Shown in pieces: positions 2,512 to 23,256 of a stretch of DNA of 64,000 bases (position 1 is its first letter; each line of letters opens with the position of its first letter). Source of the DNA: Deferrisomatales bacterium (GTDB taxonomy: Bacteria; Desulfobacterota; Deferrisomatia; Deferrisomatales; JARGFW01); the NCBI GenBank assembly GCA_029211085.1, contig JARGFW010000003.1:15938-79937 (forward strand), written 5' to 3'. The notes below the pieces were generated by a model. It had not been told where the DNA came from. It saw only the letters and a program-made list of their open reading frames with translations, and did no database searches. Both the position numbers and the translations under genes were made by a program.

Positions 2512-4890
2512 ATGGCCCACACCCTGCGACGTTGGTTCGATGTGTATCAAGGCGAGGCGCGTCTGTTTCTCCTCTCGGCCCTGGTGCTGTTTTTCGTCCG
2601 CAGCTCCGGGGTTCTGTTCGGCAACTACGCGGAGACGGCATTTCTGAAGCGGTTCGGGATCGAGTACCTCCCGATCCTCATCGTGGTGAACTCCCTGTGC
2701 ACCTTCGTGGTGATGGGGTTCTTCGGGAGGCTGATGGCCCGGGTGCCGGCCGGCAACCTGCTCCGGCGCGCCCTCATCGGCTGCGGCGTCGTGGTGGGTA
2801 CCCTGCGGCTGGCGGTCCCGCTGGGACTCGATCTCCTGTATCCGGTGCTGTACGTGCTGCGCACCCAGTTCGACCTGTTGCTCACGTTCCTGTTTTGGAA
2901 CCTGGCCAACGAGCGGTTCTCTACCCGTCAATCCAAGCGCCTGTTTCCCCTGATCACTGCCGGCGGGATCGTGGGGGGGATTCTAGGCAGCTTCGCCACC
3001 CCACTGGTGGCACGCATGACCTCGGTGGACAACTTCATGTGGCTCTATGGGATCCTGGTCCTCACCGGAGCGACGTTCACCCGGAGTCTGGCCCAGGAGG
3101 AAAGACCCCCGTCGCCGCAGCACGCCGAGCCGGCGGAACCGTCGGGGCGTTCCTCCCTGTTCCAGGAGATCCGCAGGGCCACCCCCGTGCTGCGGGAATC
3201 CTCCCTGGCCCGTTCTCTGGTGCTGATGACCCTGCTGCCGAACATCGTGATACCGCTCTTGAACTACCAGTTCAGCTTTGCGGTGGACATGAACTACGGC
3301 TCCGAAGCGGCCATGCTGGGGTTCTACAGCACCTTCCGGGGTGTCCAGTACATTCTCGCCCTGGTGATCAGCCTGTTCGCCGGGCGCTTGTATGCCCGCT
3401 TCGGGATTCCCACGTCCCTGCTGTTCCATCCACTCAACTACCTGTTCGTGTTCGCCGGGTTCCTGTTCCAGTTCGATATCTTCACCGCGGTGTACGCCGG
3501 CATCTCCGTGGGCGTGTTGCGGATGTCCGTGCACAACCCGGCCCGAACCGCTTTGTTCGGGCTCTTCCAGGAGCGGGAACGGGTGCTCCTGCGCGTGTTG
3601 CTCCGGAGCACGGTGGTGCGTGTCGGCCTCCTCTTGGGTTCCCTCCTCGTGCTGGTTTGCCAGTCCGGTTATTTCGCCTGGTGCCGCTCGGCCCTCCACC
3701 CCCAAAACCTCTCCCCGTTCGGGATGTTCTTCGCCGGGCTATGGGTCTGGGTGACGCTGCGACTCCGGCGGAAGTACCCCGCCATCCTGCTCCGGTCGAT
3801 CGGACACGAGCCCCCGGCCGCAGTCGCGGCGGGAGCCCTGGTGAGCCATGGCGTGCGGCTTCCGGCCGACGTTCTCTCCCGGTGCCGAGAACGGGTGGAC
3901 CGCTGCTACCGGAGCCTTTTCGCGGCACGGGATCTGCGGCGGGTTTCTCCCCCGAGCCCGCACCGCGAGCTACTCGCGCGGCACCTGGAGGAAGCGGCAA
4001 AGCAGGACGCGCTGGAGACCCTCTCTGCGGCCGCTCAAGCGGATTCGAGCGGCCAACTGGCGACGGTCCGGCGTGCCCTCGACTCCGGCTCCTCCCGTCG
4101 GCGATCCAACGCCCTGGAAACCCTGGACCACCTCCTCGACCGCTCCCTGGCCCGACCGTTGCTCGCGTTGCTCGATGACCTGGCACCGGGCGACCGGCTG
4201 GCTGCCGGCGCTCGGTACCTGAAGGACCGACGACCGGCGCGATCGTCGGCGGCGGACCTGATCGGCGGGTTCCTGCGCAGCCCGGACCGGGTGACGCAGT
4301 TGCTCGCGCTCCATCTCGCGCAGCACGGCGGAGCACCCTCGACCCATGCGACCGACCTGCTGCGGTTGGCCGACTCGTCCACCTCCCACGTTCGGGATCT
4401 GGCCGCCGCCATGGCTCACGGAACCCATGACAGCGGCGCGGTTTCGAACGGGCCGGCGGTTGTCACCCCAAACCTGGTCGACGCCATCCTGCTGCTGCAC
4501 AGCCTGCCCGCCATGGCCGGCGTGCCCGTGCGGGACCTGGCTGAGTTGGTGTCCTCGGGAGGCTTCGTGGAGGCGGATGCGGGGCGGGAGATCGCCCTGG
4601 ACGGCGCTCCGTTTCAAGGCATCTGTCTGGTGCTCGCGGGTGCCCTGTCGGTCGAGGGTGATGCCGTTGGCGGAGGACTGGAGTCTGGAGGGGCACTGCT
4701 CCTCGGTCCGGGAGATGCGTTCGGACCGGCGCTCCCCAACGACCCGTGCAGCCGGGGCTTGTCGGGGCGGGTGGTGGAAAACATCCGCCTGTTCCTCGTC
4801 CCCAGGGACCGACCGGCCCCGCTGGACGCGATCGCGGCGGCAAGTCGCTTCAGGGCGCCCTGCTCTCCCGCGCCAGCATGGTCTCGATGA
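2512..4890 (+). CDS. TLC/AAA-family (ATP:ADP-antiporter-like) polytopic transporter fused to HEAT-like repeats and a degenerate C-terminal cNMP-binding-like domain (paralogue 1)
   Basis: It lies in ORF 2416..4890, and I place the start at ATG 2512 (MAHTLRRWFDVYQGE). The N-terminal half is collinear with the 15453..18734 protein (FFVRSSGVLFGNYAETAFLKRFGIEYLP / LFWNLANERFSTRQSKRLFPLITAGG). The middle has HEAT-like helical repeats. The C-terminus looks like a beta-barrel but lacks a clean FGE...R(S/T)A phosphate-binding cassette. Confidence 0.7.
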   Translation: MAHTLRRWFDVYQGEARLFLLSALVLFFVRSSGVLFGNYAETAFLKRFGIEYLPILIVVNSLCTFVVMGFFGRLMARVPAGNLLRRALIGCGVVVGTLRLAVPLGLDLLYPVLYVLRTQFDLLLTFLFWNLANERFSTRQSKRLFPLITAGGIVGGILGSFATPLVARMTSVDNFMWLYGILVLTGATFTRSLAQEERPPSPQHAEPAEPSGRSSLFQEIRRATPVLRESSLARSLVLMTLLPNIVIPLLNYQFSFAVDMNYGSEAAMLGFYSTFRGVQYILALVISLFAGRLYARFGIPTSLLFHPLNYLFVFAGFLFQFDIFTAVYAGISVGVLRMSVHNPARTALFGLFQERERVLLRVLLRSTVVRVGLLLGSLLVLVCQSGYFAWCRSALHPQNLSPFGMFFAGLWVWVTLRLRRKYPAILLRSIGHEPPAAVAAGALVSHGVRLPADVLSRCRERVDRCYRSLFAARDLRRVSPPSPHRELLARHLEEAAKQDALETLSAAAQADSSGQLATVRRALDSGSSRRRSNALETLDHLLDRSLARPLLALLDDLAPGDRLAAGARYLKDRRPARSSAADLIGGFLRSPDRVTQLLALHLAQHGGAPSTHATDLLRLADSSTSHVRDLAAAMAHGTHDSGAVSNGPAVVTPNLVDAILLLHSLPAMAGVPVRDLAELVSSGGFVEADAGREIALDGAPFQGICLVLAGALSVEGDAVGGGLESGGALLLGPGDAFGPALPNDPCSRGLSGRVVENIRLFLVPRDRPAPLDAIAAASRFRAPCSPAPAWSR

Positions 4891-5989
4891 CCTCGGCGAT
4901 GTCGTGTCTGCCAGCCTGGCGCAACGGCCCGAGCAGCTCGCGGTAGAAGACGTCGCGGTGGCGGATGTTGATGTCGAAGGCCGAGAGCTTTTCGAGATCC
5001 ACGTCGTCCGCGACGAAAGCCCGGGAGCGCTCCAGCGCCCCCACGGCGGCCAGCCCGGTCATCGTGCGCAGGCACTTCTCGCACTCGCCACAGTTGAGCC
5101 GGTCCTCCACATTGGCCAGACAGACCCTCAAGTTGTGCAGCGCCACCTCCCAGTCGGCAACCAGGCGAATCTTGTCCATCCGCGACAGATGCAGGTCCTT
5201 GTGGAAGATGGGCAGGTCACGGCTGGAGTACTTGGGTTCGAGCAGCGGGTGGGTGCCGCAGGGGACCAGGTGCGCCACCGGGTAGGACGAACCGATGTAC
5301 AGGGTGTCCCACCGCGACGCGAAGGCGTGCCCGCCCGCCGCTAGGACCGCGCCGCAGAACTTGCCCAGCCACAGGGCGCGGTCGTCACACAGGTGGCGCA
5401 CGTTGGTGTACAGGGGCACCAGTCGGGTGCCGGCTGCCTCCATGACCGGGGCCAGCGCCTGCCGAGCGCGCTGGTAGACCGGGTACTTCATGCCCCGGCG
5501 CACCACCCCACCGATCTCGAAACCGTGGATGAACAGGCACTCCCGCACATAGCCGGGGTGGCCCTCGGGATAGTACTGCCGGTTGGTGAGCAACGCGGCA
5601 AAGGAATCGATGCCGCCCGACATCAACAGCGCAGCGCTGCGGTCCCGCCCCGGGAACAGGGTCTCCCCGAGCCTCGGCGCATGGATCTCCAGGGGGCGGT
5701 AGGCATCGCCACCCCAGTGTGCCAGCAGCGCCATCGCGTCTGCCAACCCCTCGGCCAGCTGCGGACACACCGGATCTTCGAGGGCGATTCTTCGCTCTCG
5801 GAAGTGCATGGCGGGCACGAAGCAGCCAACCAGAAAGGGGTGGGCGGTGAGCGAGAGGCTCTCGCCGTACGGCTCCTCCGTCTCGAAGAACACTTCGGCG
5901 GGTTCCTTGCTGCAGTCTTCCCACACCACGTCGCAGCGGATCCGCACCCTGCCCTCGCGGGTGACTTTGTCCAGGTTGCGGATTCTCAT
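4850..5989 (-). CDS. PP-loop ATP pyrophosphatase superfamily protein, QueC-like (predicted carboxylate adenylation/amidation enzyme)
   Basis: It lies in ORF 4850..6154, with the start at ATG 5989 (MRIRNLDKV). That start overlaps the upstream TGA by 4 nt (ATGA). It carries the PP-loop motif SGGIDS and a C-terminal Cys cluster NCGECEKC like the Zn site of QueC. The upstream extension of the ORF is Arg/Gly/Pro-rich and looks non-coding. Confidence 0.7.
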   Translation of the reverse strand: MRIRNLDKVTREGRVRIRCDVVWEDCSKEPAEVFFETEEPYGESLSLTAHPFLVGCFVPAMHFRERRIALEDPVCPQLAEGLADAMALLAHWGGDAYRPLEIHAPRLGETLFPGRDRSAALLMSGGIDSFAALLTNRQYYPEGHPGYVRECLFIHGFEIGGVVRRGMKYPVYQRARQALAPVMEAAGTRLVPLYTNVRHLCDDRALWLGKFCGAVLAAGGHAFASRWDTLYIGSSYPVAHLVPCGTHPLLEPKYSSRDLPIFHKDLHLSRMDKIRLVADWEVALHNLRVCLANVEDRLNCGECEKCLRTMTGLAAVGALERSRAFVADDVDLEKLSAFDINIRHRDVFYRELLGPLRQAGRHDIAEVIETMLARESRAP

Positions 5990-6867
5990 GGGGAGTACTC
6001 CGTTTCCAGGTGCCGCACGATCATTGCCGCCACATCCAGCCCGGTGGCCTGCTCCAGCCCCCGAAACCCGGGTGCATAGTTCACCTCCAGGAGATAGGGG
6101 CTGCCGTCCCGGTCGACGAGCAGGTCCACGCCGGCCAAGTCCAACCCGATGCAATGGGCCGCTCGCTCGGCCAGGCGCCGCAGGTCCGCCGCAACGGGAA
6201 CCCCTCCCCCCCGACCACCGCGGTGGATGTTGGCTCGGAAATCGCCGGGGGCGGCCACGACATCCATGGCGGCGACCGCGGCGCCTCCGAGTACCAGCAC
6301 ACGGATGTCACGACGTCCTTGGATCGGCACGAAGCGTTGCAGCAGGAACCCCTGCTTCGGCTCCAGGTCGCGGTCTACCAGCGCCTCCAGTTCGCGCAGG
6401 GATTCCGCCAGCCAAACCCCGCTTCCCTGCCGTGAGCGGGTCTGCTTGACCACCAGGGGGAACGCGCCGACGCTGGCAGCACAGGCAGCCAGGGTGTCGC
6501 GGTGGTTGCACAGAATCGAATCCGGGACCGGCAAACCCGCCGCGGTGAGACACTGCATCGTGTGAAACTTGTCGCGGGCGATGGCGATGGGCTGCGCCCG
6601 GTTGAGCAGCGCGACGCCCGCCAGCTCCAACTGCCTCACGTAGGCCAGATTCGGGTCGCTGACCAAGGCCCCCTGGCGTGGGATGACGACATCGGGGCGC
6701 GGCCCCTCCGGGTTGGGGCCGAAACCCAGCTGGCCACCGCGCATGAGGGGCCGGAGCGCATACGGATTGATCAACGATGCGTCGTGGCCGCGCTGCTGCG
6801 CGGCCTCCATCAAGCGCTGGTTGGGATGGTAGGCCGCGTCACGGACCGATACGATGCCAATACGCAC
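5986..6867 (-). CDS. RimK-family ATP-grasp ligase (alpha-L-glutamate-ligase-like)
   Basis: This 293-aa protein has a GTG start at 6867. RimK-like blocks are present: ARDKFHTMQ, VVKQTRSRQGSGV, DIRVLVLGG, DFRANIHRGG, AGVDLL...YLLEVN. Confidence 0.85.
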   Translation of the reverse strand: MRIGIVSVRDAAYHPNQRLMEAAQQRGHDASLINPYALRPLMRGGQLGFGPNPEGPRPDVVIPRQGALVSDPNLAYVRQLELAGVALLNRAQPIAIARDKFHTMQCLTAAGLPVPDSILCNHRDTLAACAASVGAFPLVVKQTRSRQGSGVWLAESLRELEALVDRDLEPKQGFLLQRFVPIQGRRDIRVLVLGGAAVAAMDVVAAPGDFRANIHRGGRGGGVPVAADLRRLAERAAHCIGLDLAGVDLLVDRDGSPYLLEVNYAPGFRGLEQATGLDVAAMIVRHLETEYSP

Positions 6868-6891
6868 AGGCGTTGCCTTTCCGAAGGGGGC

Positions 6892-8079
6892 TCAGCGGCT
6901 GGCGATTTCAGCGAACTCCGCGGCCGTCCAGATACCGACCTGCTTGTTCATCTTGGTGCTGAAGAACGAGCCGACCTGCACGGTGTTGTTGCGCCGGGCC
7001 ATGGTCTTGGTGGCCTCGTTGTCTTCGGCGATGATCGAGTAGAACTTGCGGCCCTCGGCCCGCGCGGTCAGTCCCGCGAGCAGCTGCGTGCCGATCCCCA
7101 GCCCCCGGTACTCGGGACGAACCGAGGTATAGCCGCGCTCGAGAAAGCCGCGCAGGTCGAAGCCGGTCTGCTGGCGCACGGTTTCGATGTATTCCTCGCG
7201 GGGGTGCTTCAGGGTGGAATCCGCCACCACCCGCCCGCGCTCCGTCACGTAGCCGATCAGGAACGCGGTCTCCAGATTGCTGCGCACGCGCTCGGTGGCC
7301 ACCGCCCCCCCCGCCGCCACCAGTCGCAGCACCTCGTCGAAGACCCCCGCGGGAACCTCCGCGGGGGGCGCGAACTGGTACTCGAGGGCCGCGCCCAGGG
7401 TGAACAGGGAACCGTCGTCGGCCGCGCGCATGCGGCACAGGGTCTTGACTCCGTACCGGAGCACGGCGCACAGCAGCTCCGCAGGGTCGGCCAGCCGGGT
7501 CCACAGCGGACGACCTTCGAGGGCGGCGGTCTCACCGTAGCGTGCGCGCAAATCGACCCCCCGCAATCCGCCGTCGGGTCGCTGGTGGAAGCGCGCATGG
7601 ACCACCGTGGGCTCGGCGGCGGCCTCGGCGTCCCAGGCCGTGCACACTGCGGGGGGAGACTGCGCGTCGCTGAGCACCACGTTCCAGATCCCATCTTTTG
7701 CACTCTGCCACAGACGCTTGATCTGGTCCCCCGCGGGCGGCTCGTGGACGCGCCAGAAGACCACGCGGACGCGGCGGCCGAACTCGGACAGACCCGGGCG
7801 CCCTACCGACCCATCCAAGGGCAGGGTCATCGCTATGCTTCCGCCCACCTCCGGATGCTCGCGGATGTGCTCCAGGAGGACGTGGGCCGCTGGCTCACGG
7901 ACCGCAACCCCGGGCAACAGGCTTGCCCGAACGCCCAACACAGGTCCGCAATACAACAACAGGTCTTCTCCCCGCGAAAAATCTTGGCACACGGGTTCCT
8001 GGCCAACCGGCCGGTCGCCCGCCCCTTCGGCACTGCGGGGTACGGCGCCCCCGCGACTCCGCTCTTCCGCGTCCGTCAC
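6892..8079 (-). CDS. Two-domain protein: unknown N-terminal domain (about 230 aa) plus C-terminal GNAT acyltransferase
   Basis: It lies in ORF 6892..8130. I place the start at GTG 8079, which overlaps the upstream TGA (GTGA) and has AAGGGAGG 7 nt upstream. The C-terminus has the GNAT acetyl-CoA motif (RPEYRGLGIGTQLLAGL). I recognise no motif in the N-terminal part. Confidence 0.65.
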   Translation of the reverse strand: MTDAEERSRGGAVPRSAEGAGDRPVGQEPVCQDFSRGEDLLLYCGPVLGVRASLLPGVAVREPAAHVLLEHIREHPEVGGSIAMTLPLDGSVGRPGLSEFGRRVRVVFWRVHEPPAGDQIKRLWQSAKDGIWNVVLSDAQSPPAVCTAWDAEAAAEPTVVHARFHQRPDGGLRGVDLRARYGETAALEGRPLWTRLADPAELLCAVLRYGVKTLCRMRAADDGSLFTLGAALEYQFAPPAEVPAGVFDEVLRLVAAGGAVATERVRSNLETAFLIGYVTERGRVVADSTLKHPREEYIETVRQQTGFDLRGFLERGYTSVRPEYRGLGIGTQLLAGLTARAEGRKFYSIIAEDNEATKTMARRNNTVQVGSFFSTKMNKQVGIWTAAEFAEIASR

Positions 8080-8876
8080 GGTGTGCCTCCCTTCTGGTCG
8101 GTGCACCGCAGGTCGTCTGCAAAGCGGCACAAGACCTCGCCCATGGCCATCTTGATTGACGACAGTTTCAGCGCGTCGCAGGCATAGGCATCCGGCTGTT
8201 TATACAGATCCTCGTTGAGTTCCACCTGAATTGCCCACTTGCCTTGCTGACGAAGCAACGGGCCGTAAGTCGCTGTGATGAAGCCACCGGAATACGGGCT
8301 ATTGAGGGAGACGCTGAACCCCTGCGCACGAAACGCCTCCGCGAGGAAAGCCAGAATCTCGCCCGGGCAGCTGGTGGTCCGCCTGGCAGAGGTCGAACCA
8401 TTGGGATCCCCCAGGTTGCCCAGGGTCACATCCTTGCGACGCTGGGATCGGTCTGGAGCGTTGACCGGGCCGATCCCCTCCAAGGAGTGGCAATCGATCA
8501 AGCCGGCGCAAGGCGTCGTGGCGAGCACGTCGCGCAGGCGGGTGTGAAACGGCTGGTAGTAGCGCTCGATCAGCTGCGCTCTCAACGCGGCGGACGGCTC
8601 CCGTCCGGGCTTCCACACCCGGTTGCCCCCGTAATCCGTCTGCGGGATCACCCCCATCGGGCGCTGGTCGTCGATTGCCCGGTTCAGATCGACAACCAAC
8701 CGGCTACACACCGCCGGCACAACGGCCACTACCGGCAGGTCGACATAGATCTCGCCGGTGCACAGGTCCGCCGAGCGGGCCACCTCTTCGTCGCCGACCG
8801 CCAGGCGCTCGACGATCTCCGCGGCGATGGTTGTAGAACAGTGGGGCAACGACAGAACGAACGGCAGCGGGTTCAC
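8076..8876 (-). CDS. N-formylglutamate amidohydrolase (FGase) family hydrolase
   Basis: This 266-aa protein has a GTG start at 8876 that overlaps the upstream TGA (GTGA). FGase-like blocks are present: SLPH, RLVVDLNR, GLIDCHS. Confidence 0.7.
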   Translation of the reverse strand: MNPLPFVLSLPHCSTTIAAEIVERLAVGDEEVARSADLCTGEIYVDLPVVAVVPAVCSRLVVDLNRAIDDQRPMGVIPQTDYGGNRVWKPGREPSAALRAQLIERYYQPFHTRLRDVLATTPCAGLIDCHSLEGIGPVNAPDRSQRRKDVTLGNLGDPNGSTSARRTTSCPGEILAFLAEAFRAQGFSVSLNSPYSGGFITATYGPLLRQQGKWAIQVELNEDLYKQPDAYACDALKLSSIKMAMGEVLCRFADDLRCTDQKGGTP

Positions 8877-9880
8877 TCTTGAGCCCTCGCAAAGCCGCGC
8901 TTCTCGGCCACCTTGAGTTCGATGAAATCGACGATCTTCTCTTCCAGCTTCACTTTGTCCAGGCGATTGATGCGCGGCACGCCGCCGGGACTGAGGCAGT
9001 TGATCTCGATGAGCTTGTCCCCGATGATATCGATGCCCACGAAGTACAGCCCATCGCGCACCAGACGCTCCTTGATCACCTCACAGATATGGCGTTGGGC
9101 CGGCGTCAGTGTGTGCTTCAGCGCCCGGCCCCCCGCGTGGATGTTGGTGCGGAAATCACCCACTGCCGGGACCCGGCGCATGGCGCCCAGCACCTCGCCG
9201 TTGAGCAGCAGGACACGCACGTCTCCCTCACTCAGGCTGGTCTCGAGGTACTCCTGCACCATGATCGGTTCCCGCCGCGCATACTCCCGGGAGGAATGGA
9301 CGTAGAAGTGGATCAGGGAGTTCAGATTGAGCTTGTCCTGCATGCCCACCTTGATGACCCCTTCCCCCCCGAACCGGGAGATGGGCTTGATGATCATGGA
9401 GCCCCCGAACTCCTCGATCACCCTGCGCAGTCGGTTGGGGTCCCTGGACAAGTGGGTTTCCGGAATGATACTGGGAAAGTTCAGGGCGTAGAGCTTGGTG
9501 TGGGCGAGCAGTTGCCCGTGGGTCGAGTTGAGGATGAACACCCGGTCTTCGAGCGGCGACAGAATTTCCAAGGCATGGCGAACGATCGGCGGGTTCTTGC
9601 GCAGGAAGATCGCGTCGATCTCGCTCAAGGGCTCGAAAATTCGCTCCTCGCGCTTCAAGCCCCGGATCAAGGTCCGCCAGTACTGCTTCATCGACAGATC
9701 TTGGGGAGCCGATACATCCCGCATTCGTGCAACAATGCGATTGCCCCGCACATAGATGTCGTGGGGCTCGAAGAAATACACCGAGTGCCGGCGCTGGTTG
9801 CACTCGTACATGATGTGGCTGGTGGTCTCGTGGACTGGAGCGATGGACTCAAGGGGGTCCATCAGGAATGCTATTCTCAT
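8873..9880 (-). CDS. Glutathione-synthetase-like (GshB-type) ATP-grasp ligase
   Basis: This 335-aa protein starts at ATG 9880. It is collinear by eye with E. coli GshB: MDP...; IFLRKNPP; IIKP..RFGGEGV; GDVRVLLLNGE; NIHAGGR; GLYFVGIDIIGDKLIEINCLSP. Its GC content is visibly lower (about 57% in the first 120 nt) than that of its neighbours. Confidence 0.8.
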   Translation of the reverse strand: MRIAFLMDPLESIAPVHETTSHIMYECNQRRHSVYFFEPHDIYVRGNRIVARMRDVSAPQDLSMKQYWRTLIRGLKREERIFEPLSEIDAIFLRKNPPIVRHALEILSPLEDRVFILNSTHGQLLAHTKLYALNFPSIIPETHLSRDPNRLRRVIEEFGGSMIIKPISRFGGEGVIKVGMQDKLNLNSLIHFYVHSSREYARREPIMVQEYLETSLSEGDVRVLLLNGEVLGAMRRVPAVGDFRTNIHAGGRALKHTLTPAQRHICEVIKERLVRDGLYFVGIDIIGDKLIEINCLSPGGVPRINRLDKVKLEEKIVDFIELKVAEKRGFARAQE

Positions 9881-10183
9881 GATTGCACCGGCTTTCTTCT
9901 TCCGTGGCCAGCGAGAACACCGCTAATCATGCGCTAGTTTTTCTTCCTCCACCTGCTGGGTCCAATCGTTTACCATGGTTCTTAGATTCCCTATCTACCA
10001 GGGTGCATCACCTCCGGGAAGAAAAACCCTCCAAATGGTTTCTCTGCCCCCCGTAAAAGCATCCAAAAATTTGTGTTCAAGGGGAAGGATGACCGCTGTC
10101 CTGCCGAAGGGCCGTCCCTTTGCCACGGCCGATCTCACTACTACACTTACTCTAGCGCGCGCCACCTCAGGAGCCACCCCCGG

Positions 10184-11788
10184 ATGAGTCCGTCCACCCT
10201 GCGTCACGCATTGGCCATCGCAGCACTGCTGCTCTTGGCCCCCCCCGTGCAGGCACGGACAAAGACCCCGGCCGATCTGCTGCTGTTGGCTGCGGATCTC
10301 AGCTCGATGATCACCCTGGACCCCGCGGCCGTGGCGGAAAGCCTCACCAGCGGGTTCCTGCGCAACACCTGCGACACGCTGATGGACCTCGACGAAGAGG
10401 ATGCTTCGCGCGTAGTACCGGGGGTCGCCGAGCGGTGGAGCGTTTCGGAGGATCTGAGCACCTACACCTTCACCCTCCGGGACGGGCTGGTGTTCCCTTC
10501 CGGCAATCCGGTCACCGCCCGGGACTTCGCCTGGTCAATGCGCAGAAACGTGGAGCTCAACCTGGCCAGCGCGAAGCGGCTCCGCGACTGGGGGATCGAC
10601 GCCAGCAATATCGACCAGGTGGTGACCGTGGTCGATGATCGCACCCTGCGGTTGACGCCGCCGCGGCGTTACGCCCCCTCGCTGTTCCTGTTCGCCCTCA
10701 CCGACTACCGGGTGGCCCCCGCCCTCGACTCCGTCCTGGTGCAGGAGAAGGAGGTCAGCGGCGACCACGGCAACCGCTGGCTGTCACGCAACACCGCCTG
10801 CTACGGGCCGTTCCGGGTCAAGACCTGGCGCCCCCAGGAGGTGCTGGTACTGGAACGCAATCCGGACTGGTACAAGGACAACCCCATCCGCAAGGTCCTC
10901 GTGCGCCACATCTCCGAACCCGGCTCCCAACGCCTGATGCTGGAGCGCGGCGACATCGACATGGGGGTCAACATCGACCCCGCAGACTACGACGAACTGG
11001 AAAACAACCCCGACACGTACCTGACGAAGACGCCGGGGCTGCGGATGATCTACATGGCCTTCAACACGCTGGACCCGCGGTTTCAGGACCCTCGGGTGAT
11101 CCAGGCCTTCCGCCACATGATCGACTACGACACGCTGAGCAACACCGTGTTGAAGAACGCGGCCGAGGTGCGACAGAGTCCGGTGCCCAGCGCGATGTTC
11201 GGCGCCCTGCCGCGGGACTTCCGGCCCTACGCGTTCGACCTGGAGAAAGCCCGGCAGTTGCTCCGCGATGCAGGGCACGCAGACGGCCTGGTGGTGGAAC
11301 TGATGACCCAGAGTTCCTACCCGTACTACGACATCGCCCAGCACATCCAGGCGAACGCAGCCGCGATCGGCGTGGAGGTCCGTATCGCCTCCACCATCGG
11401 CAAGCACCTCTACACGAGTCTGCGGGCGCGCAAATACGAGATCTCCCTGTCCGGGTACGCGTTCAACTACCCCGACGCCAACAATGTGATGCTCAGCCAC
11501 GGATACAACCCCAGCGGGTCCGACACGGACAACACCGTCTCGGTGGCGTGGCGCTCCTCATGGTTCCCGGAGCCGTGGTTCAACGAGGCCATCCTGGCCG
11601 CCCAGACCGCGGCCGACCCGGACCGGCGCCGGAGCATCTACGAGGATCTGCAGCGCTACCACGTGGAGCACTCACCACTGATCTACCTGTTCGAGCGAAT
11701 CGATGTCCGGGCCCTGAGCAGGTCGGTGCGGAGCGTGAAGTGCAACGCGGCTGGCATATGTTTCTCCTCGGTGGTGAAAGAGCAATGA
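10184..11788 (+). CDS. ABC transporter substrate-binding protein, family 5 (peptide/nickel, DppA/OppA-like)
   Basis: It lies in ORF 10073..11788, starting at ATG 10184, which is preceded by AGGAG. It has a signal peptide (MSPSTLRHALAIAALLLLAPPVQA). Length and composition are typical of family-5 substrate-binding proteins. Confidence 0.85.
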   Translation: MSPSTLRHALAIAALLLLAPPVQARTKTPADLLLLAADLSSMITLDPAAVAESLTSGFLRNTCDTLMDLDEEDASRVVPGVAERWSVSEDLSTYTFTLRDGLVFPSGNPVTARDFAWSMRRNVELNLASAKRLRDWGIDASNIDQVVTVVDDRTLRLTPPRRYAPSLFLFALTDYRVAPALDSVLVQEKEVSGDHGNRWLSRNTACYGPFRVKTWRPQEVLVLERNPDWYKDNPIRKVLVRHISEPGSQRLMLERGDIDMGVNIDPADYDELENNPDTYLTKTPGLRMIYMAFNTLDPRFQDPRVIQAFRHMIDYDTLSNTVLKNAAEVRQSPVPSAMFGALPRDFRPYAFDLEKARQLLRDAGHADGLVVELMTQSSYPYYDIAQHIQANAAAIGVEVRIASTIGKHLYTSLRARKYEISLSGYAFNYPDANNVMLSHGYNPSGSDTDNTVSVAWRSSWFPEPWFNEAILAAQTAADPDRRRSIYEDLQRYHVEHSPLIYLFERIDVRALSRSVRSVKCNAAGICFSSVVKEQ

Positions 11789-12855
11789 ACATGGCACAGA
11801 CCACCCAGCAGGGGACAGACCCGCACCGCGGGGGAGCCACGCAGTGGGGCTCTCGGGCCCGGCGGCTGGCCCAGCTGGTGCTGACCATCGGGCTCACCCT
11901 GCTCGGTCTGCTAGCGGTGACCTTCTTCATCGGCCGGTTGATGCCCATCGACCCGGTGGTCGCCATCATCGGCGAGCAGGCAGACCAGGCGGCGTATCAG
12001 ACGGTGTATCACCAGCTCGGGCTGGACAAGCCGCTGCCGGTGCAGTTCTTCATCTACGCCCGCAGCATCTTCAGCGGCGACTTCGGCTTCTCCCTCACCA
12101 CCGGCAATCCGGTGGCCGAAGACCTTTGGCGGGTCTGGCCCGCGACCATGGAATTGGCCACCCTGGCGCTGGTGCTGGGGGTGCTGGCGGGGGTGCCGCT
12201 GGGGATCATCGCCGCCATCTGCCAGAACTCCGTGTGGGACCACCTGGTCCGGCTGTTCAGCCTGATCGGCCACTCGATCCCGAATTTCTGGCTCGGGCTG
12301 ATGGCCCTGGTGGTGTTCTACGCCAAGCTGGGCTGGATCGGGGGGGCAGGCCGCACCTCGATGCAGTTCATCGACGCGCTGGATCCGGTGACGGGATCGA
12401 TTCTGCTGGACTCGCTGTTGGCCCGCAGGTGGGACATGCTCGCCGACGCCCTGCGACACGTGATCATGCCCGCCCTGATCCTCGCCAGCGGCTCGATGGC
12501 GTTCCTCAGCCGCATGACCCGCAGTTTCATGCTCGAGCAGTTGAACCAGGAGTACATCGTCACCGCCAAGCTGAAGGGCCTGGGCACGGCCGGTCTGGTC
12601 GCCCACGCCATGCGCAACATCGGCGTGCAGTTGGTCACCATCGTGGTGCTTTCCTACGGCGGGCTGCTCGACGGAGCGGTGCTGACCGAGACGGTCTTTG
12701 CCTGGCCCGGCTTCGGCAGGTACATGACCACAGGACTGATGAACGGCGACATGAACGTGACCCTGGCCTGCGTGTTCCTCGTGGGCACGATCTTCATCAC
12801 CATGAATCTGTGCGCAGACGCACTCTACCGCATACTCGACCCGAGGACCCGCTGA
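11785..12855 (+). CDS. ABC transporter permease (DppB/OppB-like)
   Basis: The start at ATG 11785 overlaps the stop of the binding-protein gene (ATGA). Typical DppB blocks are present: RLMPIDPV, MTRSFMLEQLNQEYIVTAKLKGL. Confidence 0.9.
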   Translation: MNMAQTTQQGTDPHRGGATQWGSRARRLAQLVLTIGLTLLGLLAVTFFIGRLMPIDPVVAIIGEQADQAAYQTVYHQLGLDKPLPVQFFIYARSIFSGDFGFSLTTGNPVAEDLWRVWPATMELATLALVLGVLAGVPLGIIAAICQNSVWDHLVRLFSLIGHSIPNFWLGLMALVVFYAKLGWIGGAGRTSMQFIDALDPVTGSILLDSLLARRWDMLADALRHVIMPALILASGSMAFLSRMTRSFMLEQLNQEYIVTAKLKGLGTAGLVAHAMRNIGVQLVTIVVLSYGGLLDGAVLTETVFAWPGFGRYMTTGLMNGDMNVTLACVFLVGTIFITMNLCADALYRILDPRTR

Positions 12856-13757
12856 TGATCGGGGTAAGGCAGTGGCTACGGGCCGCCGAGGCCGCTTCAC
12901 CGACCCAGGCCCTGGCCCAAAGGGTCTACTTCGGCTGGCTCGAGTTCAAGTCGCACCGACTCGCCATGGTGGGGCTCTCGGTGCTCGCCGCACTGGTGCT
13001 GATGGCCGCGTTTGCCCCCTGGATCGCCACCCACGACCCACTGGCGCAGGACCTAATGTTCCGCCTGGCCGGACCCAGCAGGGAACACTGGCTGGGCACC
13101 GACGAACTCGGCCGGGACCTGTTCAGTCGCATCGTCTACGGCTCTCGGACCACCCTGTACATCATGACCGTGGTCGCCTCCATGATCGGCCCCGCCGGCC
13201 TGTTGATCGGCACCGTGGCCGGGTTCCTGGGGGGCCGGGTGGACGCCCTGCTGATGCGCATCACCGACGTGTTTCTCGCCTTCCCCGGGCTGGTCTTGGC
13301 CCTGGCTTTTGTCGCCGTACTCGGCCCCGGCCTGGAAAACGCGTTGATCGCCATCGCGCTGACCGGGTGGCCCGGCATCGCACGCCTGGCCCGGGCGGAA
13401 ACCCTCACCCTGCGCTCCCGGGACTTCATCCACGTGATCAGACTGCAGGGGGGGTCACAGCTACGGATCATCCTGCGCCACATCATCCCCCTGTGCCTGC
13501 CGTCGGTGATCGTGCGCCTTACCCTGGGCATGTCGGGCATCATCCTCACGGCCGCCGGCCTGGGGTTCCTGGGTCTGGGTGCACGGCCCCCCGCGCCCGA
13601 GTGGGGATCCATGCTTTCCACCGGGCGGCGGTTCATGCTCGACCACTGGTGGCTCGCCGCGATACCGGGCACGGCGATCCTGCTGGTGAGCCTCGCCTGC
13701 AACCTGCTTGGCGACGGGCTGCGGGATGTCCTGGACCCAAGGAGCAAGACCGGATGA
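12855..13757 (+). CDS. ABC transporter permease (DppC/OppC-like)
   Basis: The start at ATG 12855 shares one nt with the upstream TGA. It carries the block HWLGTDELGRDLFSRIVYGSR and several transmembrane segments. Confidence 0.9.
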   Translation: MIGVRQWLRAAEAASPTQALAQRVYFGWLEFKSHRLAMVGLSVLAALVLMAAFAPWIATHDPLAQDLMFRLAGPSREHWLGTDELGRDLFSRIVYGSRTTLYIMTVVASMIGPAGLLIGTVAGFLGGRVDALLMRITDVFLAFPGLVLALAFVAVLGPGLENALIAIALTGWPGIARLARAETLTLRSRDFIHVIRLQGGSQLRIILRHIIPLCLPSVIVRLTLGMSGIILTAAGLGFLGLGARPPAPEWGSMLSTGRRFMLDHWWLAAIPGTAILLVSLACNLLGDGLRDVLDPRSKTG

Positions 13758-14623
13758 ACCACACCACCCCCCCCGCCGACCCCATTCTCAAGGTGGACAA
13801 CCTGTCGGTCGGCTACGCCTCCCATCACGGAACGGTGCACGCCGTGCGGGACGTTTCGTTCCAGATGGGTGCGGAAAAGGTGGGCATCGTCGGCGAGTCG
13901 GGTTCGGGCAAGTCCACCCTGGGCAGGGCCCTGCTGCGCATTCTGCCGCGCAGCGCCACCCTGCAGGGGAACATCTGGTTTCACGGCACCGACCTGGCGC
14001 GGCTGACCGAAAAGCAACTGCGCGCCTACCGGGGTGCCCGACTGTCGATGGTCCTGCAGGACCCCAAGTACTCGCTGAATCCGTTGATGCGGGTAGGCGA
14101 ACAGATCGCCGAAGCCTACCGCCTGCATTCCGACGCCAGCCGAGAACAGGCCCGGGAGCGGGCCATGTCGATCCTCGAGGCGGTACAGATCAGGAACCCC
14201 GCTCGGGTCTACCGCTCCTACCCCCACGAGGTCTCCGGCGGCATGGGGCAACGAGTGATGATCGCCATGATGCTGGTCGCGGAGCCCGAGTTGGTGGTGG
14301 CCGACGAGATCACCTCCGCCCTCGACGCGACGGTGAGCATGCAGGTGCTGGCCATCCTCGACGATCTGGTCCGGGAAATGGGCTTGGGCCTGGTGTTCAT
14401 CAGCCACGATCTGGAACTCGTCGCGACGTTCTGCGAGCGCATCCTGGTCATGTACGCCGGGCGCATCGTCGAGGAGTGTCGCGCCGGGGAACTCGACCAG
14501 GCCCGGCACCCGTACACCCGCGGGCTGCTCGGGTCGGTTCCGCGCATCGACCGGCCGAGCCGCCGCCTGGCGGTGCTCGAACGCTGTCCCACCTGGGCCG
14601 AGCCCACACCGGGTGCCCCGTGA
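13754..14623 (+). CDS. ABC transporter ATP-binding protein (DppD/OppD-like)
   Basis: The start at ATG 13754 overlaps the upstream TGA (ATGA). It has Walker A GESGSGKST, the signature VSGGMGQRV, and Walker B LVVADEITSALD. Confidence 0.9.
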   Translation: MNHTTPPADPILKVDNLSVGYASHHGTVHAVRDVSFQMGAEKVGIVGESGSGKSTLGRALLRILPRSATLQGNIWFHGTDLARLTEKQLRAYRGARLSMVLQDPKYSLNPLMRVGEQIAEAYRLHSDASREQARERAMSILEAVQIRNPARVYRSYPHEVSGGMGQRVMIAMMLVAEPELVVADEITSALDATVSMQVLAILDDLVREMGLGLVFISHDLELVATFCERILVMYAGRIVEECRAGELDQARHPYTRGLLGSVPRIDRPSRRLAVLERCPTWAEPTPGAP

Positions 14624-15417
14624 CACCCGTGATCGAGGCAAACGGCCTGAGCGTGGTTTTCGGCAAGGGTGCGGCGGCCCACCGGGTGCTGGACTCGGTG
14701 TCCTTCAGGGTAGGCCGCAACGAGGTGTTCGGCCTGGTCGGGGAGTCCGGCTGCGGCAAGTCTACCCTGCTCAACTGCCTCAGCGGGCTGCAGCGCAACT
14801 GGGAGGGAGAGCTCCGCATCGACGGCGCCCCCCTGGCCCGCAGGCGCAGCAAGGCGTGTTTCCGCCGTACCCAGATGGTCTTCCAGGATCCCTATGACTC
14901 GCTGCACCCGCGACACACCGTCAACTCGATCCTGCGCGAGCCGCTCTCCATCCACCGCCTGGGCGACGTGGACGCGCGCATTCGCGGCGCGCTGAGCGAA
15001 GTCGGGTTGGGACCCGAGTTTCGTTTTCGCTACCCCCATCAGCTCTCCGGCGGCCAACGCCAGCGCGTGGCCATCGCCCGCGCCCTGATCCTGGACCCCG
15101 AGATCCTACTGCTGGACGAGCCCACCTCGGCCCTGGATGTTTCCGTGCAGGCAGAGATCCTCAACCTGCTCCTGGACATTCGGGAGAAGGGCCGCATCAC
15201 CTACGTGCTGGTCAGCCACAACCTGGGCGTGGTGGCCCACATGTGCAACCGGATCGCGGTCCTGCACGGCGGAGTCCTGGTCGAGGAACTGGTCCCCGAC
15301 CAACTGCGGGAGCACACCCCGCAACACCCCTACACCCGTCGACTCCTCGACGCCAACCTCGGCTACGACCGCGGCAAGGCCCACAGGATGCTGCAAGGGG
15401 CGGAGTCCGGTGGGTAG
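14620..15417 (+). CDS. ABC transporter ATP-binding protein (DppF/OppF-like)
   Basis: The start at GTG 14620 overlaps the upstream TGA (GTGA). It has Walker A GESGCGKST, the signature LSGGQRQRVAIARAL, and Walker B LLLDEPTSALD. Confidence 0.9.
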   Translation: MTPVIEANGLSVVFGKGAAAHRVLDSVSFRVGRNEVFGLVGESGCGKSTLLNCLSGLQRNWEGELRIDGAPLARRRSKACFRRTQMVFQDPYDSLHPRHTVNSILREPLSIHRLGDVDARIRGALSEVGLGPEFRFRYPHQLSGGQRQRVAIARALILDPEILLLDEPTSALDVSVQAEILNLLLDIREKGRITYVLVSHNLGVVAHMCNRIAVLHGGVLVEELVPDQLREHTPQHPYTRRLLDANLGYDRGKAHRMLQGAESGG

Positions 15418-15452
15418 ACCACCCGGCGCCGGGAACCCTGGGGAGTCCCCCC

Positions 15453-18400
15453 GTGCGTAAGCGGCTCCTGGGCTTGCTGAACCTTACCGAGAACGAGCTC
15501 GCCCTGTTCCTGTGGACCGCTGCCCTGCTGTTTTTCGTCAGGAGTTCGGGCATCGTCCTCAACAACTTCGCCGAGACGGTGTTCCTGCAGCGCTTCGGCG
15601 TGGAGTTCCTGCCCTACGTCAACATGGGCAACGCGGCGGCCACGTTCCTGTTGATGGGCTGGATGAGCGGGCTCCTCGGGCGCTTCTCCGCCGCACAGCT
15701 GCTCGAGAAAATGTTCTTTTTCTGCGGCATCTCGGTGGTGTTCTTGCGCCTCCTCATTCCCCTCGGCCTGACCTTCGTCTATCCGGTGTTCTTCATCCTC
15801 AAGGCCCAGTACGAGGTCCTGCTTGCCCTGTTGTTCTGGAATCTCGCCAATGACCTGTTCGACACCCGGCAGTCGAAACGCATCTTCCCCCTGGTCACGG
15901 CGGGGGGGGTGGTCGGGCAGATTCTCGGCAGCTTTCTCACGCCAGCGGCCGCGCGACTTCTCTCCCTGGACAACCTCGTCTATTTCTACCTGGCCATCGT
16001 GGTCGCGGGGGCCCTGACGACACTGGCGATGCGGCGGAAGCACCCATCCTCCGCGTTCATCGGGGAGAAGAAAGAGAGCAACGACAAAATTTCCATACTG
16101 GATGAAGTTCGAAACATCATCCCTATAATAAAAGAGTCTCACCTACTGAAGATCCTCATCGCGTTGACATTCATTCCCAACGTTCTCATACCCATACTGA
16201 ATTACCAATTCAATTTCGTTGTCGCGGACCGCTTTGCCTCTGAAAGTGGTATGTTGGATTTCCTGAGCAATTTCAGAGGTTATCTAAACATCGTCAGCCT
16301 ATTGATATTGCTTTTCGTCGGAAAGTTATACGGAAGATTCGGTCTACCGATCGCTTTGATGTTCCACCCAATCAACTACCTTCTTATCTTCGCCTCCCTG
16401 CTGCTCCGCTTCGACATCATCACGGCTTCATACGCGCGCCTGACAGCCAACATCGTCCGCACGACGATCAATGCGCCAGCGCTCGCCGTAGTCACCGGGA
16501 TGTTCCCGGAACGCTACCGGAATCAAGTGCGCCCGTTCCTGCGCGGGACGGTCGTGCGCGTCGGGATCGTGGGCAGCTCGGCCGTCATCCTGGCATCTGC
16601 CCCCTTGTTCCACCCCCGCTACCTGTCGCTGGTGGCCCTGCCATTTTGCCTCACGTGGATTGCCGCCTGTGTGTCCCTGAAGCGCAACTACGCGGCTCTG
16701 CTGCTGGGCATCGTGCGGGATGGCACCCTGGAGCTGAACTCCATGGAGGAGGATCGGGTCGCCGAGTATTTTCAGGACTCCCGGGTAAAAGACACCCTCG
16801 CCCAGAACCTGGCGCAGGCGAGCGAAGATACCAAGGTCTGGCATGCGGACCTGCTGCGCCGGGTGGACGCGGCGCGCGCCAGTATCCTGATCGCGGCAGT
16901 CCTGAAACGGGAGGACTCGGAGCAGACGTGCACCCGGCTCATCCATCTACTGGACTCGGACCCGGACGGCTCGGTGGTGGAGAAGCTCAAGACCCTGGTG
17001 GACCTCTCGCGCACCCGGCAGACCCGCGCGCTGCTCACCGCGTTGCGCCGCTTCGACCCAGCCAGTTCCCGAGAGGTCTGCGCGCACATCGAGACCCTGG
17101 AACCGCCCCTGTCGATCCGCGCGCACACCGTTGCGGATCTGTACGCAACCGATCCGCAGGCCTACGGCCGCACCGTAGACGCCTGGCTCCACTCTTCCCA
17201 GCGCCGGGAGCGGGCCGCCGGGGCCGTGGCTGCCGGCCTGATCGGCGCGGACTACGGCGACACCCTGCGCGGCATGCTCGACCGCGAGCAGGACCCTCGG
17301 GTCACGGCCAAACTTCTCCAGGCACTGCAGCAGATAGGGATGAGCGGGTTGAAACCCCTCGCCGAGCGGTTTCTCGATCACCCGAGCCCGGCGGTGCGCT
17401 TCTTCGCTCTGCAGGGGTACGGAGTGGGGGGAAGGAGCGACTTGCGCAAGGTCGTCTATATGTTCGCCGACCCGTCCAGCAGGGTGGCCGAACGGGCTCG
17501 GCAGAAGGTCAAGAGCGCTCCCAACCTCGACGCCCAGGATCTGTTCGCCCTGCTGGACCTGCCCCACAAGAAAGTGCGCAAAGGAATTCTCGCGCTACTG
17601 AAGTCGATCAACGTGGGCGAGATCGAGGTCATCCGCTTCGGCATGAAACAGGCGCGCACCGCGTATCAACGTCTGGCCGAGGCCAACGCCCTGGACCAGT
17701 TGCCAGATAGCCTGGAGCGCAACCTGCTCCAACGCCACCTGCTGACCCTCAAGGACGAAGCGGCGGAGACCCTGATCCGCGTCCTGCAGAGCCAGAACCG
17801 AGAGGTTGGGATGCGAACCCTGGCCAGGGGGCTGTTCACCGGGGACGAGCGCAGGAAGGCAAACAGCGTGGAGGCGATTTCACAACTCCTCGCCAAGCCG
17901 CTGCGCGAGGTGCTGGTGCCCATCCTGGACAGCACCGACAACGACGCGAAGCTGGCGGCAGGAAGGCGGCACTTCTCCCTGAAATACTACCGCCAAGAGA
18001 CCGACGCGTTGGTGTCGACGCTGTCGGTCAGCGAGGACTGCGTGACCTCCGCCCTCGCCTATTTCCTGTCGATGAAGGAGCACATCCCCATCGACCTGTC
18101 GGCGGCCGTGGATCTGGAACGCTTCGAGTCGGAACCCATCTGCAAGATCGCCCACTTCCTGTATCAGTCGGGCGCCGGCCCGAACACGGCAACGGAGTCC
18201 GCCATGAAGAACGCCCTGGGCCTTCCAGAAAAGATCTTCTTGCTGCAGAACGTATACGTCTTCCAAGGCATGTCCGTCGGCGACCTGGCGGCGGTCGCCG
18301 CAGTCGGCGAGGAGGTAGCGCTGCAGGCCGGACAGCGCGTCTTCGCCGAAGGCGAGTTCGCCGACAAGATGTTCATGGTGGCCACAGGCGCGGTGTCGCT

Positions 18401-18734
18401 GACGAAGCAGGTGGAGAACGGGGAGGCGGTTGAAGTGCGGAACCTCGGGAAAGGCGATCATTTCGGCGAGATCGCCCTATTCAACGACGACCCGCGCCTG
18501 GTCACCGCCACGGCGAGCACCGACACCCACCTACTGGTCTTGCACAAGGACGAACTGACCGAACTGATCCGTGAGTTTCCCCAGATCGGGCTGCACATCT
18601 GCCGCGCGTTCAGCAAGCAACTGCGCCAGGTTCTGAACCTGGTTGCCGAGCGCCACGGGCCCCGGGGGCTCTCCGACCTCATAAGCAAGGCCGGCGCCTT
18701 GTGTGGGTCACCCTCCACGGGCGACTTGAGCTGA
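15453..18734 (+). CDS. TLC/AAA-family transporter fused to HEAT-like repeats and a C-terminal cyclic-nucleotide-binding domain (paralogue 2)
   Basis: It lies in ORF 15243..18734. I place the start at GTG 15453 (VRKRLLGLL), with GGGGAG upstream, only 36 nt after the ABC ATPase gene. The N-terminal half is collinear with paralogue 1. HEAT-like repeats are present ([15 protein letters not shown]..., [14 protein letters not shown]). The C-terminus has a near-canonical cNMP cassette ([23 protein letters not shown]). Confidence 0.75.
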
Positions 18735-18870
18735 CGCGCTGCCGTGGGCAGGGCCCAGGAATGCGGCAGCGCAGGCAGGCCCGGCTCGCTTGCGTCGCTG
18801 CTACCTCGCCGACGTGCCCTGCATCCTAGTGACACAACCGTCCCTTTGTTCCTCCCACGAAGGACCCGCC

Positions 18871-21726
<2,856 letters not shown>

Positions 21727-23120: not shown

Positions 23121-23232
23121 TTGGGCGGGATCGCACAGATCACGCGGATGAAGACCGTAGCATGATTTTGGGTTTGCTGTTCGATCCGTGAGATCCGTGA
23201 ACTCCTGTCAAAAAAGAGAAGGTTTGGACGTT
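23121..23232. repeat. Intergenic element with two TTGGG...GATC-N5-GATC units; homologous to 55706-55765
   Basis: GATC pairs lie at 23129/23138 and 23183/23192, each spaced 9 nt start to start. The stretch TTGGGTTT...GATCCGTGAGATCC...TGTCAAAA...GGTTTGGA recurs nearly unchanged at 55706-55765. Confidence 0.6.
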
Positions 23233-23256
23233 CCCTCCCCTGAGAGCGGAGTTCCC

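Follow-up and report, generated by a model that had tools for sequence, protein, structure and literature searches.

The 64,000-nucleotide stretch of Deferrisomatales bacterium DNA studied here (the window) contains two related carrier genes, paralogue 1 (2512-4890, plus strand) and paralogue 2 (15453-18734, plus strand), with an operon of ligase-type genes and a peptide-type ATP-binding cassette (ABC) importer between them. Paralogue 2 joins a membrane carrier domain of the NTT (nucleotide transporter) or TLC type, a HEAT-type helical solenoid and a C-terminal cyclic-nucleotide-binding domain (cNBD) in one polypeptide. In our preferred reading, positions 4850-18734 are one module conserved across Desulfobacterota. 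It would combine synthesis of a glutamyl-type amide-linked product, a paralogue 2 carrier whose activity is set by a cyclic nucleoside monophosphate (cNMP), and import by the ABC system. We give this reading an even chance of being correct. Paralogue 1 is unlikely to be a member of the module.

The DNA is about 67% G+C, and long spurious open reading frames (ORFs) occur on both strands. Genes were therefore assigned from third-position G+C content (GC3), family scans and comparison with L001, a metagenomic relative that is 82-89% identical. For example, the plus-strand ORFs in 4965-9937 have zero family matches in a Pfam scan, and GC3 frame analysis places the real genes of this region on the minus strand. 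Five ligase-type genes are found there in tight succession, as one operon. It begins with a GshB-like ATP-grasp ligase (8873-9880; Pfam GSH-S_ATP and GSH-S_N) and continues with a hydrolase of the FGase (N-formylglutamate amidohydrolase) family (8076-8876; Pfam FGase, E 2e-41) and a 412-amino acid protein with a C-terminal GNAT domain (6892-8130; Pfam Acetyltransf_1; alignment A4). A 293-amino acid RimK-family ATP-grasp ligase (5986-6867; Pfam RimK, E 4e-39) and a 379-amino acid protein with an SGGxDS motif (4850-5989) complete the set.

The divergent intergenic region that follows, 9881-10183 by direct reading of the sequence, has one sigma-70-like match (10120-10147, plus strand). Beyond it lies a complete five-gene importer of the Dpp/Opp type on the plus strand, every component of which scores above its Pfam cutoff. 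It consists of a family-5 substrate-binding protein (SBP; 10184-11788; SBP_bac_5, 255 bits), two permeases (11791-12855 and 12855-13757; BPD_transp_1, BPD_transp_1_N and OppC_N) and two ATPases (13754-14623 and 14620-15417; ABC_tran and oligo_HPY). The start of the SBP gene was taken from the 86%-identical L001 orthologue. The initial annotation of this DNA had placed exactly these two gene sets between the carriers, and we agree. It had also suggested asking whether related genomes keep carrier, ligase and ABC genes together.

They do. The comparison used the best 80 of 336 carrier loci in species-representative genomes, among which the highest carrier identity is 43%. Loci were searched by tblastn with the window proteins plus the cyclase, FGE-like, fusion ligase and orf390 proteins of locus L004. 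For the neighbourhood counts, 29 species-level loci flanked on each side by 8 kb or more were used. One or more ligase-operon genes are present in 27 of these, ABC permeases in 23, a gene for an FGE-sulfatase-like protein in 21, a class III nucleotidyl cyclase gene in 14 and copper genes in none. The cyclase is membrane-anchored, and the FGE-like protein has the FGE-sulfatase fold. Typically, genes for the cyclase, FGE-sulfatase-like protein, carrier, GshB-like ligase, SBP, two permeases and two ATPases follow one another in one direction, optionally ending with FGase and a further cyclase. Oppositely oriented genes may precede this series, RimK (with or without a GNAT fusion) being next to the cyclase and the PP-loop gene, which corresponds to the 379-amino acid protein, outermost. 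The GshB-like ligase is directly upstream of the SBP gene in most loci. The two loci without a ligase gene are a second carrier copy in a metagenome-assembled genome (MAG) whose first copy has the cluster, and a Desulfosarcina widdelii locus whose upstream flank is taken up entirely by ABC, cyclase, GAF and FGE-like genes.

The same association appears when the search is reversed and a metagenome scan is seeded with the 379-amino acid protein. Among its orthologues (at least 47% identity, with at least 7 kb upstream), a carrier gene is nearby in 20 of 23 and a RimK gene in 22 of 23. Among more distant homologues, each is found in only 1 of 20. An independent subfamily is represented by L172, whose 1248-amino acid carrier has a double cNBD. 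Its FGase, carrier, GNAT, PP-loop, GshB-like, SBP, permease, permease, ATPase and ATPase genes are co-directional with overlapping ends, and its ABC proteins are 58-72% identical to those of the window. L001, with a carrier 82% identical in amino acid sequence, is syntenic for the ABC-paralogue 2 part, and its contig ends at the carrier gene. The forward and reverse counts, together with L172, establish a real and old linkage between the carrier gene and the ABC and ligase genes.

The two carriers were proposed to be paralogues, and this is borne out. BLASTP aligns the 792- and 1093-amino acid proteins at 39% identity over 556 amino acids (E 9e-120), a second segment in the C-terminal part is 31% identical over 291 amino acids (E 7e-20), and both motif strings that had been quoted as shared are found verbatim. 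Their membrane domains span about amino acids 1-420 of paralogue 1 and positions ~15453-16718 of paralogue 2, with about 12 hydrophobic segments. Pfam TLC (PF03219, cutoff 21) gives 31.3 bits for paralogue 2 and 24.2 bits for paralogue 1, and MFS_1 reaches 32.1 bits, under its cutoff of 33.4. A profile of 22 membrane domains (A3) searched against 177,635 PDB sequences matched only NTT1 chains, from C. pneumoniae (E 4.8e-5) and Arabidopsis (E 2.5e-4). The three best Foldseek matches of paralogue 2 are likewise AtNTT1 and CpNTT1, with TM scores of 0.66-0.73 normalised to the target (0.73 for AtNTT1, 9j3l). This fold comparison was run on paralogue 2, and the fold of paralogue 1 is deduced from its 43% identity in the membrane domain. 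The assignment as a TLC-type carrier thus stands, and the concern that the domain might be an ordinary MFS transporter is not realised. Neither protein approaches the cutoff of 387.2 bits for TIGR00769, the NTP/NDP exchange transporter model (33.7 and 25.3 bits), and identity to the solved NTT structures is 15%. The carriers are homologous and share the NTT/TLC fold, yet they are far from the canonical exchangers.

This distance bears on the foremost alternative, in which the carrier is a true nucleotide transporter (ATP/ADP or NTP/NDP) that is tuned by cAMP to the energy state of the cell, and the ligase and ABC genes adjoin it through a shared signal. Its fold, the motif region around FW..AN(D/E)....(S/A)K(R/K) common to the paralogue 2 family, AtNTT1 and CpNTT1, the many invariant Arg and Lys residues of the membrane domain, and the adjacent cyclase gene in many loci are all as this alternative predicts, and cAMP tuning of ATP uptake has been raised as a speculation by Major, Embley and Williams (2017, PMC5381601). 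However, the hosts are free-living anaerobes with no host cytosol as a source of nucleotides, the exchanger model is matched at 34 bits against 387, and the tight gene overlaps involving GNAT, PP-loop and GshB-like genes in L172 suggest a shared pathway beyond shared regulation. We regard nucleotide transport as improbable, though it is the strongest competitor of the peptide-module reading.

Outside the membrane domain, the proposal that both carriers have the same three-part architecture holds in part. Both have the NTT/TLC carrier, but the solenoid of paralogue 1 is about 300 amino acids shorter and its cNBD is vestigial. Paralogue 2 therefore has the complete combination and paralogue 1 a partial one. 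The AF2 model of paralogue 2 (mean pLDDT 77) contains 12 membrane helices, an alpha-solenoid at amino acids 433-932 (~16749-18248) and a cNBD (~18276-18701), and Pfam HEAT_2 is matched at 19.9 bits, below threshold. The cNBD scores 79.1 bits with Pfam PF00027 (cNMP_binding), and its phosphate-binding cassette (~18453-18512) has the form FGEIAL..PR, which keeps Gly-Glu and Arg of the pattern FGE(L/I/M)AL...R(S/T)A. In paralogue 1 the corresponding C-terminus (~4570-4809) reaches 13.6 bits (E 0.067), and its cassette, FGPALPND...R, has FGP for FGE and has lost the Glu. The earlier view of a lost cassette in paralogue 1 is thereby confirmed, and that of a near-canonical one in paralogue 2 holds for the residues named.

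The paralogue 2 family has 876 database matches; its members are about 1070 amino acids long, are 41-44% identical to paralogue 2 and come mostly from Desulfobacterota. Their annotations read either 'Npt1/Npt2 family nucleotide transporter' or 'cyclic nucleotide-binding domain-containing protein'. In family alignment A1, conservation is highest in the membrane domain, which has dozens of invariant polar residues. Paralogue 2 itself starts with GTG at 15453, 35 nucleotides past the TAG of the last ATPase gene, and is preceded by a GGGGAG ribosome-binding site. No terminator-like hairpin is found in this gap. The spacing had been given as 36 nucleotides, which is nearly exact and correct as to a short gap. 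These features appear compatible with co-transcription of paralogue 2 and the ABC genes.

The long solenoid also invites a view of the NTT-HEAT-cNBD protein as a sensor or scaffold (a 'transceptor'), in which the HEAT repeats bind ligases or ABC ATPases, the cNBD acts as the switch and transport is secondary or lost. About 500 amino acids of alpha-solenoid are modelled with confidence between the membrane domain and the cNBD, and HEAT repeats are described as protein-interaction modules in PMC5381601. This would be surprising all the same, since the membrane domain is conserved as in an active transporter, being the best-conserved part (about 57-62% identity within the long clade of carriers) with invariant polar residues.

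Within the ligase operon, the RimK-like protein exceeds the TIGR00768 cutoff (190.1 bits against 143.4) and falls short of the S6-ligase equivalog (174.5 against 331). The GshB-like protein is below both of its equivalog cutoffs (PRK05246, 262.9 against 272; TIGR01380, 240.3 against 299) and matches E. coli GshB (1gsa) with an E value of 1.6e-31. Judged by these scores, it is a close relative of GshB, not a demonstrated GshB. The GNAT protein is fused to the RimK-like ligase in many relatives. In L004, for example, a 915-amino acid GNAT-RimK fusion maps contiguously onto window positions 7719-5995.

The 379-amino acid protein belongs to a family that has no Pfam or NCBIfam model and is annotated only as hypothetical. 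It is 52.5% identical to orf390 of L004. The SGGxDS motif and four cysteines (C290, C300, C303 and C306) are invariant in 29 family members, and 19 of the 29 have a sub-threshold QueC match over the cysteine ribbon (18 bits against a cutoff of 22). PDB sequence searches with the protein, singly and as a profile, found nothing meaningful. Its AF2 model (pLDDT 88, pTM 0.89) has no significant fold neighbour in the PDB. The weak matches (1m1z, 5ztb, 2dum and 8sue; E 0.045-0.5) are a beta-lactam synthetase, a TtuA-type sulfurtransferase, a USP protein and an asparagine synthetase, all of them PP-loop or AANH proteins. We read the 379-amino acid protein as a PP-loop ATP pyrophosphatase of divergent sequence that has a Cys ribbon like that of QueC. 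PP-loop ATP pyrophosphatases activate carboxylates by adenylation.

A RimK-type ligase could also act on a protein. If the operon carried out polyglutamylation of ribosomal protein S6 or LysX/LysW chemistry, the carrier and importer would be loosely connected to it. The RimK-like protein passes the cutoff of the rimK_fam model and resembles both S6-glutamate ligase and LysX. Nevertheless, no gene for a small carrier protein and no conserved acidic C-terminus is seen in the cluster, and the position of the GshB-like gene directly upstream of the SBP gene in most loci is a better fit to a small peptide. Protein modification is accordingly rated as a quite unlikely role.

From the folds, domain content, paralogy and conserved neighbourhood of these genes we infer a product chemistry, a substrate, a direction of transport and a control by cNMP, which together make up the peptide-module reading. 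The GshB-like, RimK-like, GNAT, PP-loop and FGase enzymes would assemble, trim or amidate a small amide-linked compound. Such a set has the potential for two peptide-bond formations, the acylation of an amine, the amidation or other activation of a carboxylate, and the hydrolysis of a bond of the N-acyl-glutamate type. The product would most likely be a glutamyl-type oligopeptide, following the logic of N-acetylglutaminylglutamine amide or of a glutathione-like peptide. The Dpp/Opp-type ABC system could import this product, a precursor or a building block. Its genes reach no equivalog cutoff, and the best solved relatives of the SBP are HbpA/GbpA, DppA and YliB/GsiB. Together with the near-cutoff GshB score, these relatives may be taken as no more than hints of a modified glutamyl peptide.

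Paralogue 2 would be the secondary carrier of the module and would transport either the product or a charged precursor through the inner membrane. The activity of its NTT-fold domain would be set by the cytoplasmic HEAT solenoid and cNBD, and the class III cyclase that is adjacent in 14 of the 29 loci could make the signal. Paralogue 1 would be an old paralogue of the short clade described below, and its position next to the module in this lineage would be fortuitous. A cNMP-gated carrier for a small, amide-linked, glutamyl-type metabolite is our best guess for paralogue 2.

Several points weigh against this interpretation. To our knowledge, the cargo of every characterised NTT is a nucleotide and not a peptide. 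The conserved neighbourhood indicates a functional linkage and not a mechanism. Its composition varies: FGase is detected in few loci, L172 lacks RimK, and in some loci there are only the carrier, a PP-loop paralogue and a radical-SAM protein. The sampled loci are nearly all from Desulfobacterota, so the association covers these and not the NTT-HEAT proteins of cyanobacteria, chlamydiae or oomycetes. In the window lineage, no cyclase and no FGE-like gene is found within the 64 kb at E <=1e-5, and the cassette of paralogue 2 reads RLVT where the family has RSAT, with LV after the Arg in place of the SA of 20 of 23 relatives. Control by cNMP may consequently be weakened or different here. The description of paralogue 2 as cyclic-nucleotide-gated suits the family and is overstated for this lineage.

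A broader generalization is possible, although it is more doubtful than the module itself. The NTT-HEAT-cNBD carriers of free-living bacteria might be the cNMP-gated part of an undescribed pathway for an amidated or acylated peptide-like osmolyte, thiol or signal, which the two ATP-grasp ligases, the GNAT and the new PP-loop family would synthesise. The carrier would release this compound, the Dpp-type importer would recapture it and the cyclase would set the flux. These proteins would then not be transporters for energy parasitism.

Paralogue 1 has a separate history. A partial protein from a Deferrisomatales MAG matches it at 97% identity, and its nearest full-length relatives are proteins of about 600 amino acids that have the membrane domain and a short helical tail and lack a cNBD. 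Paralogue 1 and this short clade have in common a clade-specific insertion, CQSGYF..C...LHPQNL(S/A)PFG. A neighbour-joining tree of membrane domains places paralogue 1 within the short clade, at 62% identity to P0122-P0124, and paralogue 2 in the long clade, at 57-62%, with 43% between the two. The tree and the insertion rule out a recent local duplication of paralogue 2 as the origin of paralogue 1. Five short-clade loci from other genomes contain no ligase or ABC genes. Three of the five (L086, L088 and L090) share one synteny, so that the five amount to about three independent contexts. The functional island suggested by the initial annotation is thus supported as a set of ligases, ABC importer and paralogue 2, which have a conserved neighbourhood; for paralogue 1 it is not.

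The short-clade contexts have features of their own. The three syntenic loci, which are of the Geothermobacter type, have a sigma-54 regulator upstream. In two of them, L086 and L088 (11.8-21.8 kb), DUF302 and CusA/CusB-like RND efflux genes are found downstream of the NTT-HEAT gene, and PCYCGC and HMA genes are also close by; the third contig ends before the DUF302/CusAB region. These efflux genes and the oxidase of the window, from two independent lineages, may indicate a link of the short clade to metals. In L087 (4202-12676), the NTT-HEAT gene is beside a polyphosphate set of PPK2, Ppx-GppA, PPK1, CHAD and CYTH genes. Another short-clade locus adjoins queF.

Copper genes do flank the block, as had been noted. 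A multicopper oxidase gene (39-2303, plus strand; Pfam Cu-oxidase_3, Cu-oxidase_2 and Cu-oxidase), truncated where the window begins, is on the left, and a gene for a P1B-type ATPase with two YHS/TRASH and two HMA domains by Pfam (18790-21726, plus strand) is on the right. The genes to the right of the ATPase encode a sulfite/nitrite-reductase-like protein (21801-23090, plus strand; NIR_SIR_ferr and NIR_SIR; about 75% G+C) and a pyridoxal phosphate (PLP) enzyme of Cys/Met metabolism (23188-24399, plus strand), so the two 'copper loci' amount to one gene on each side. Copper genes are found in 0 of the 80 related species loci. In a set of 85 related loci, the multicopper oxidase occurs in none and the P1B ATPase in one, about 8 kb from the carrier gene. 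We regard both as unrelated neighbours outside the conserved cluster. The idea that the block was inserted into a copper-homeostasis locus is not supported: the window has no tRNA gene and no direct repeats that bracket the block, and G+C content is 0.58-0.70 inside and similar outside, with no marked compositional break.

The same observations leave very little room for an island that both paralogues would serve as carriers (for example, an importer and an exporter) within a 16-kb block inserted among copper genes. Paralogue 1 does converge on the PP-loop gene with a 41-nucleotide overlap, the single carriers of nine Desulfotignum/Desulfobacula-type loci (L055, L065, L066, L072, L077, L079, L080, L082 and L084) have this orientation, and the copper-type genes are at both edges, but the affinity of paralogue 1 to the short clade (62% against 43%), the ligase- and ABC-free contexts of that clade, the copper-free relatives, the lack of insertion marks and the sulfite-reductase-like gene to the right of the ATPase all count against it.

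The architecture of paralogue 2 has a precedent. NTT-HEAT and NTT-HEAT-cNBD fusions were described by Major et al., whose data set includes 33 deltaproteobacterial NTT sequences; according to these authors, the fusions form a monophyletic and predominantly bacterial group, and their function is given as unknown (PMC5381601). The initial annotation had called such fusions functionally unassigned, which agrees with this account. The passages retrieved from that paper contain no gene-neighbourhood analysis. In the literature searched, later mentions of NTT-HEAT proteins go no further than citing Major et al., and TLC, cNBD and ATP-grasp genes are nowhere linked. Paralogue 2 has the same three domains and is an ordinary full-length member of the group, whereas paralogue 1 is a short-clade form with a vestigial cNBD. 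What is added here, relative to these passages, is the neighbourhood with ATP-grasp, PP-loop, GNAT, FGase, ABC, cyclase and FGE-like genes. In the literature searched, the conserved cluster and the PP-loop family appear to be new, and the architecture is known, with the window copy as a new member.

Other characterised systems resemble single parts of the module. AtNTT1 and CpNTT1 (9j3l, 9j3m and 9j3n) share the 12-helix fold and the FW..AN..(S/A)K(R/K) motif with paralogue 2, which differs in its low identity (15%), a score far below the TIGR00769 cutoff, a C-terminal extension of about 670 amino acids and a free-living host. SLC9C1 and MloK1 also combine a membrane transport domain with a C-terminal cNBD, and they were matched through the cNBD in both fold and sequence. 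However, their membrane domains are unrelated to that of paralogue 2 and neither has a HEAT solenoid as a linker. Importers of the Dpp, Opp and Gsi types have the same five-gene set as the window, whose genes reach none of their equivalog cutoffs.

For the enzymes, the closest parallel is the pathway for N-acetylglutaminylglutamine amide. Ngg in that pathway consists of GNAT and ATP-grasp domains, and AsnO is an amidotransferase with a PP-loop synthetase domain. The cluster likewise has a GNAT fused or adjacent to a RimK-like ATP-grasp ligase plus a PP-loop enzyme, for which amidation of a carboxylate is conceivable. This is an analogy and not membership: TIGR03103 scores in the cluster are 25-47 bits against a cutoff of 569, the PP-loop protein is without a glutaminase domain, and the GshB-like ligase, FGase, ABC importer and NTT carrier are extra.

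A reproducible neighbourhood in cultured sulfate reducers gives an orphan family its first functional context, with partners and with candidate substrates and a candidate signal. Cultured examples are Desulfosarcina widdelii PP31, with carrier, ABC, cyclase and FGE-like genes, and the delta proteobacterium NaphS2, with the carrier and a PP-loop paralogue. The analysis also flags a large unannotated family of PP-loop-like enzymes. Finally, it calls for caution in annotation. Canonical NTT/TLC carriers include the ATP/ADP transporters of intracellular parasites, and a TLC/NTT match should not be taken as a mark of an intracellular lifestyle.

The PP-loop-like family extends well beyond this cluster, with 7760 clusters at 50% identity (E <=1e-3). 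In L089 (13339-16067), L023, L049, L074 and others, the arrangement is minimal, with a distant PP-loop paralogue (27-29% identity) directly after the carrier gene. The next gene in L089 encodes a B12-binding/radical-SAM-like protein, and there are no ATP-grasp or ABC genes in the available flanks. Some members of the family (P0358, P0386 and P0403) carry a fused FemAB-like GNAT, sulfotransferase or polysaccharide pyruvyl-transferase domain. Given such fusions, other branches of the family may act on glycans.

The GNAT proteins of Desulfobacterales (L106 7072-9069 and relatives, alignment A4) have an extra N-terminal domain, ILLVxPPxxSPA...DANLDF, which is missing from the window protein at 6892-8130. 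A B12-binding/radical-SAM origin of this domain was considered and set aside, as its likeness to the B12-binding radical-SAM N-terminus in L172 is too faint (E 0.19).

No Rfam RNA family match is found anywhere in the 64-kb window. The first permease gene, an intact 354-amino acid frame in the window, is called as two genes (294 and 76 amino acids) in L001 (3681-4735). Because the window frame is intact, the split looks like a frameshift or an assembly error.

Some details of the flanking genes may be added. The reductase-like gene at 21801-23090 sits in the read-through frame of a spurious 1058-amino acid ORF. Immediately beyond the P1B ATPase gene, it and the PLP enzyme gene make up a pair for sulfur assimilation. 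The multicopper oxidase has a weak TamB-like C-terminal tail, and a 9-nucleotide periodic repeat at 1010-1100 in its gene encodes a Met/Gly-rich stretch. The P1B ATPase gene contains a 130-nucleotide tandem duplication (18927-19233, 78% identity) that corresponds to the two YHS/TRASH modules ahead of the HMA domains.

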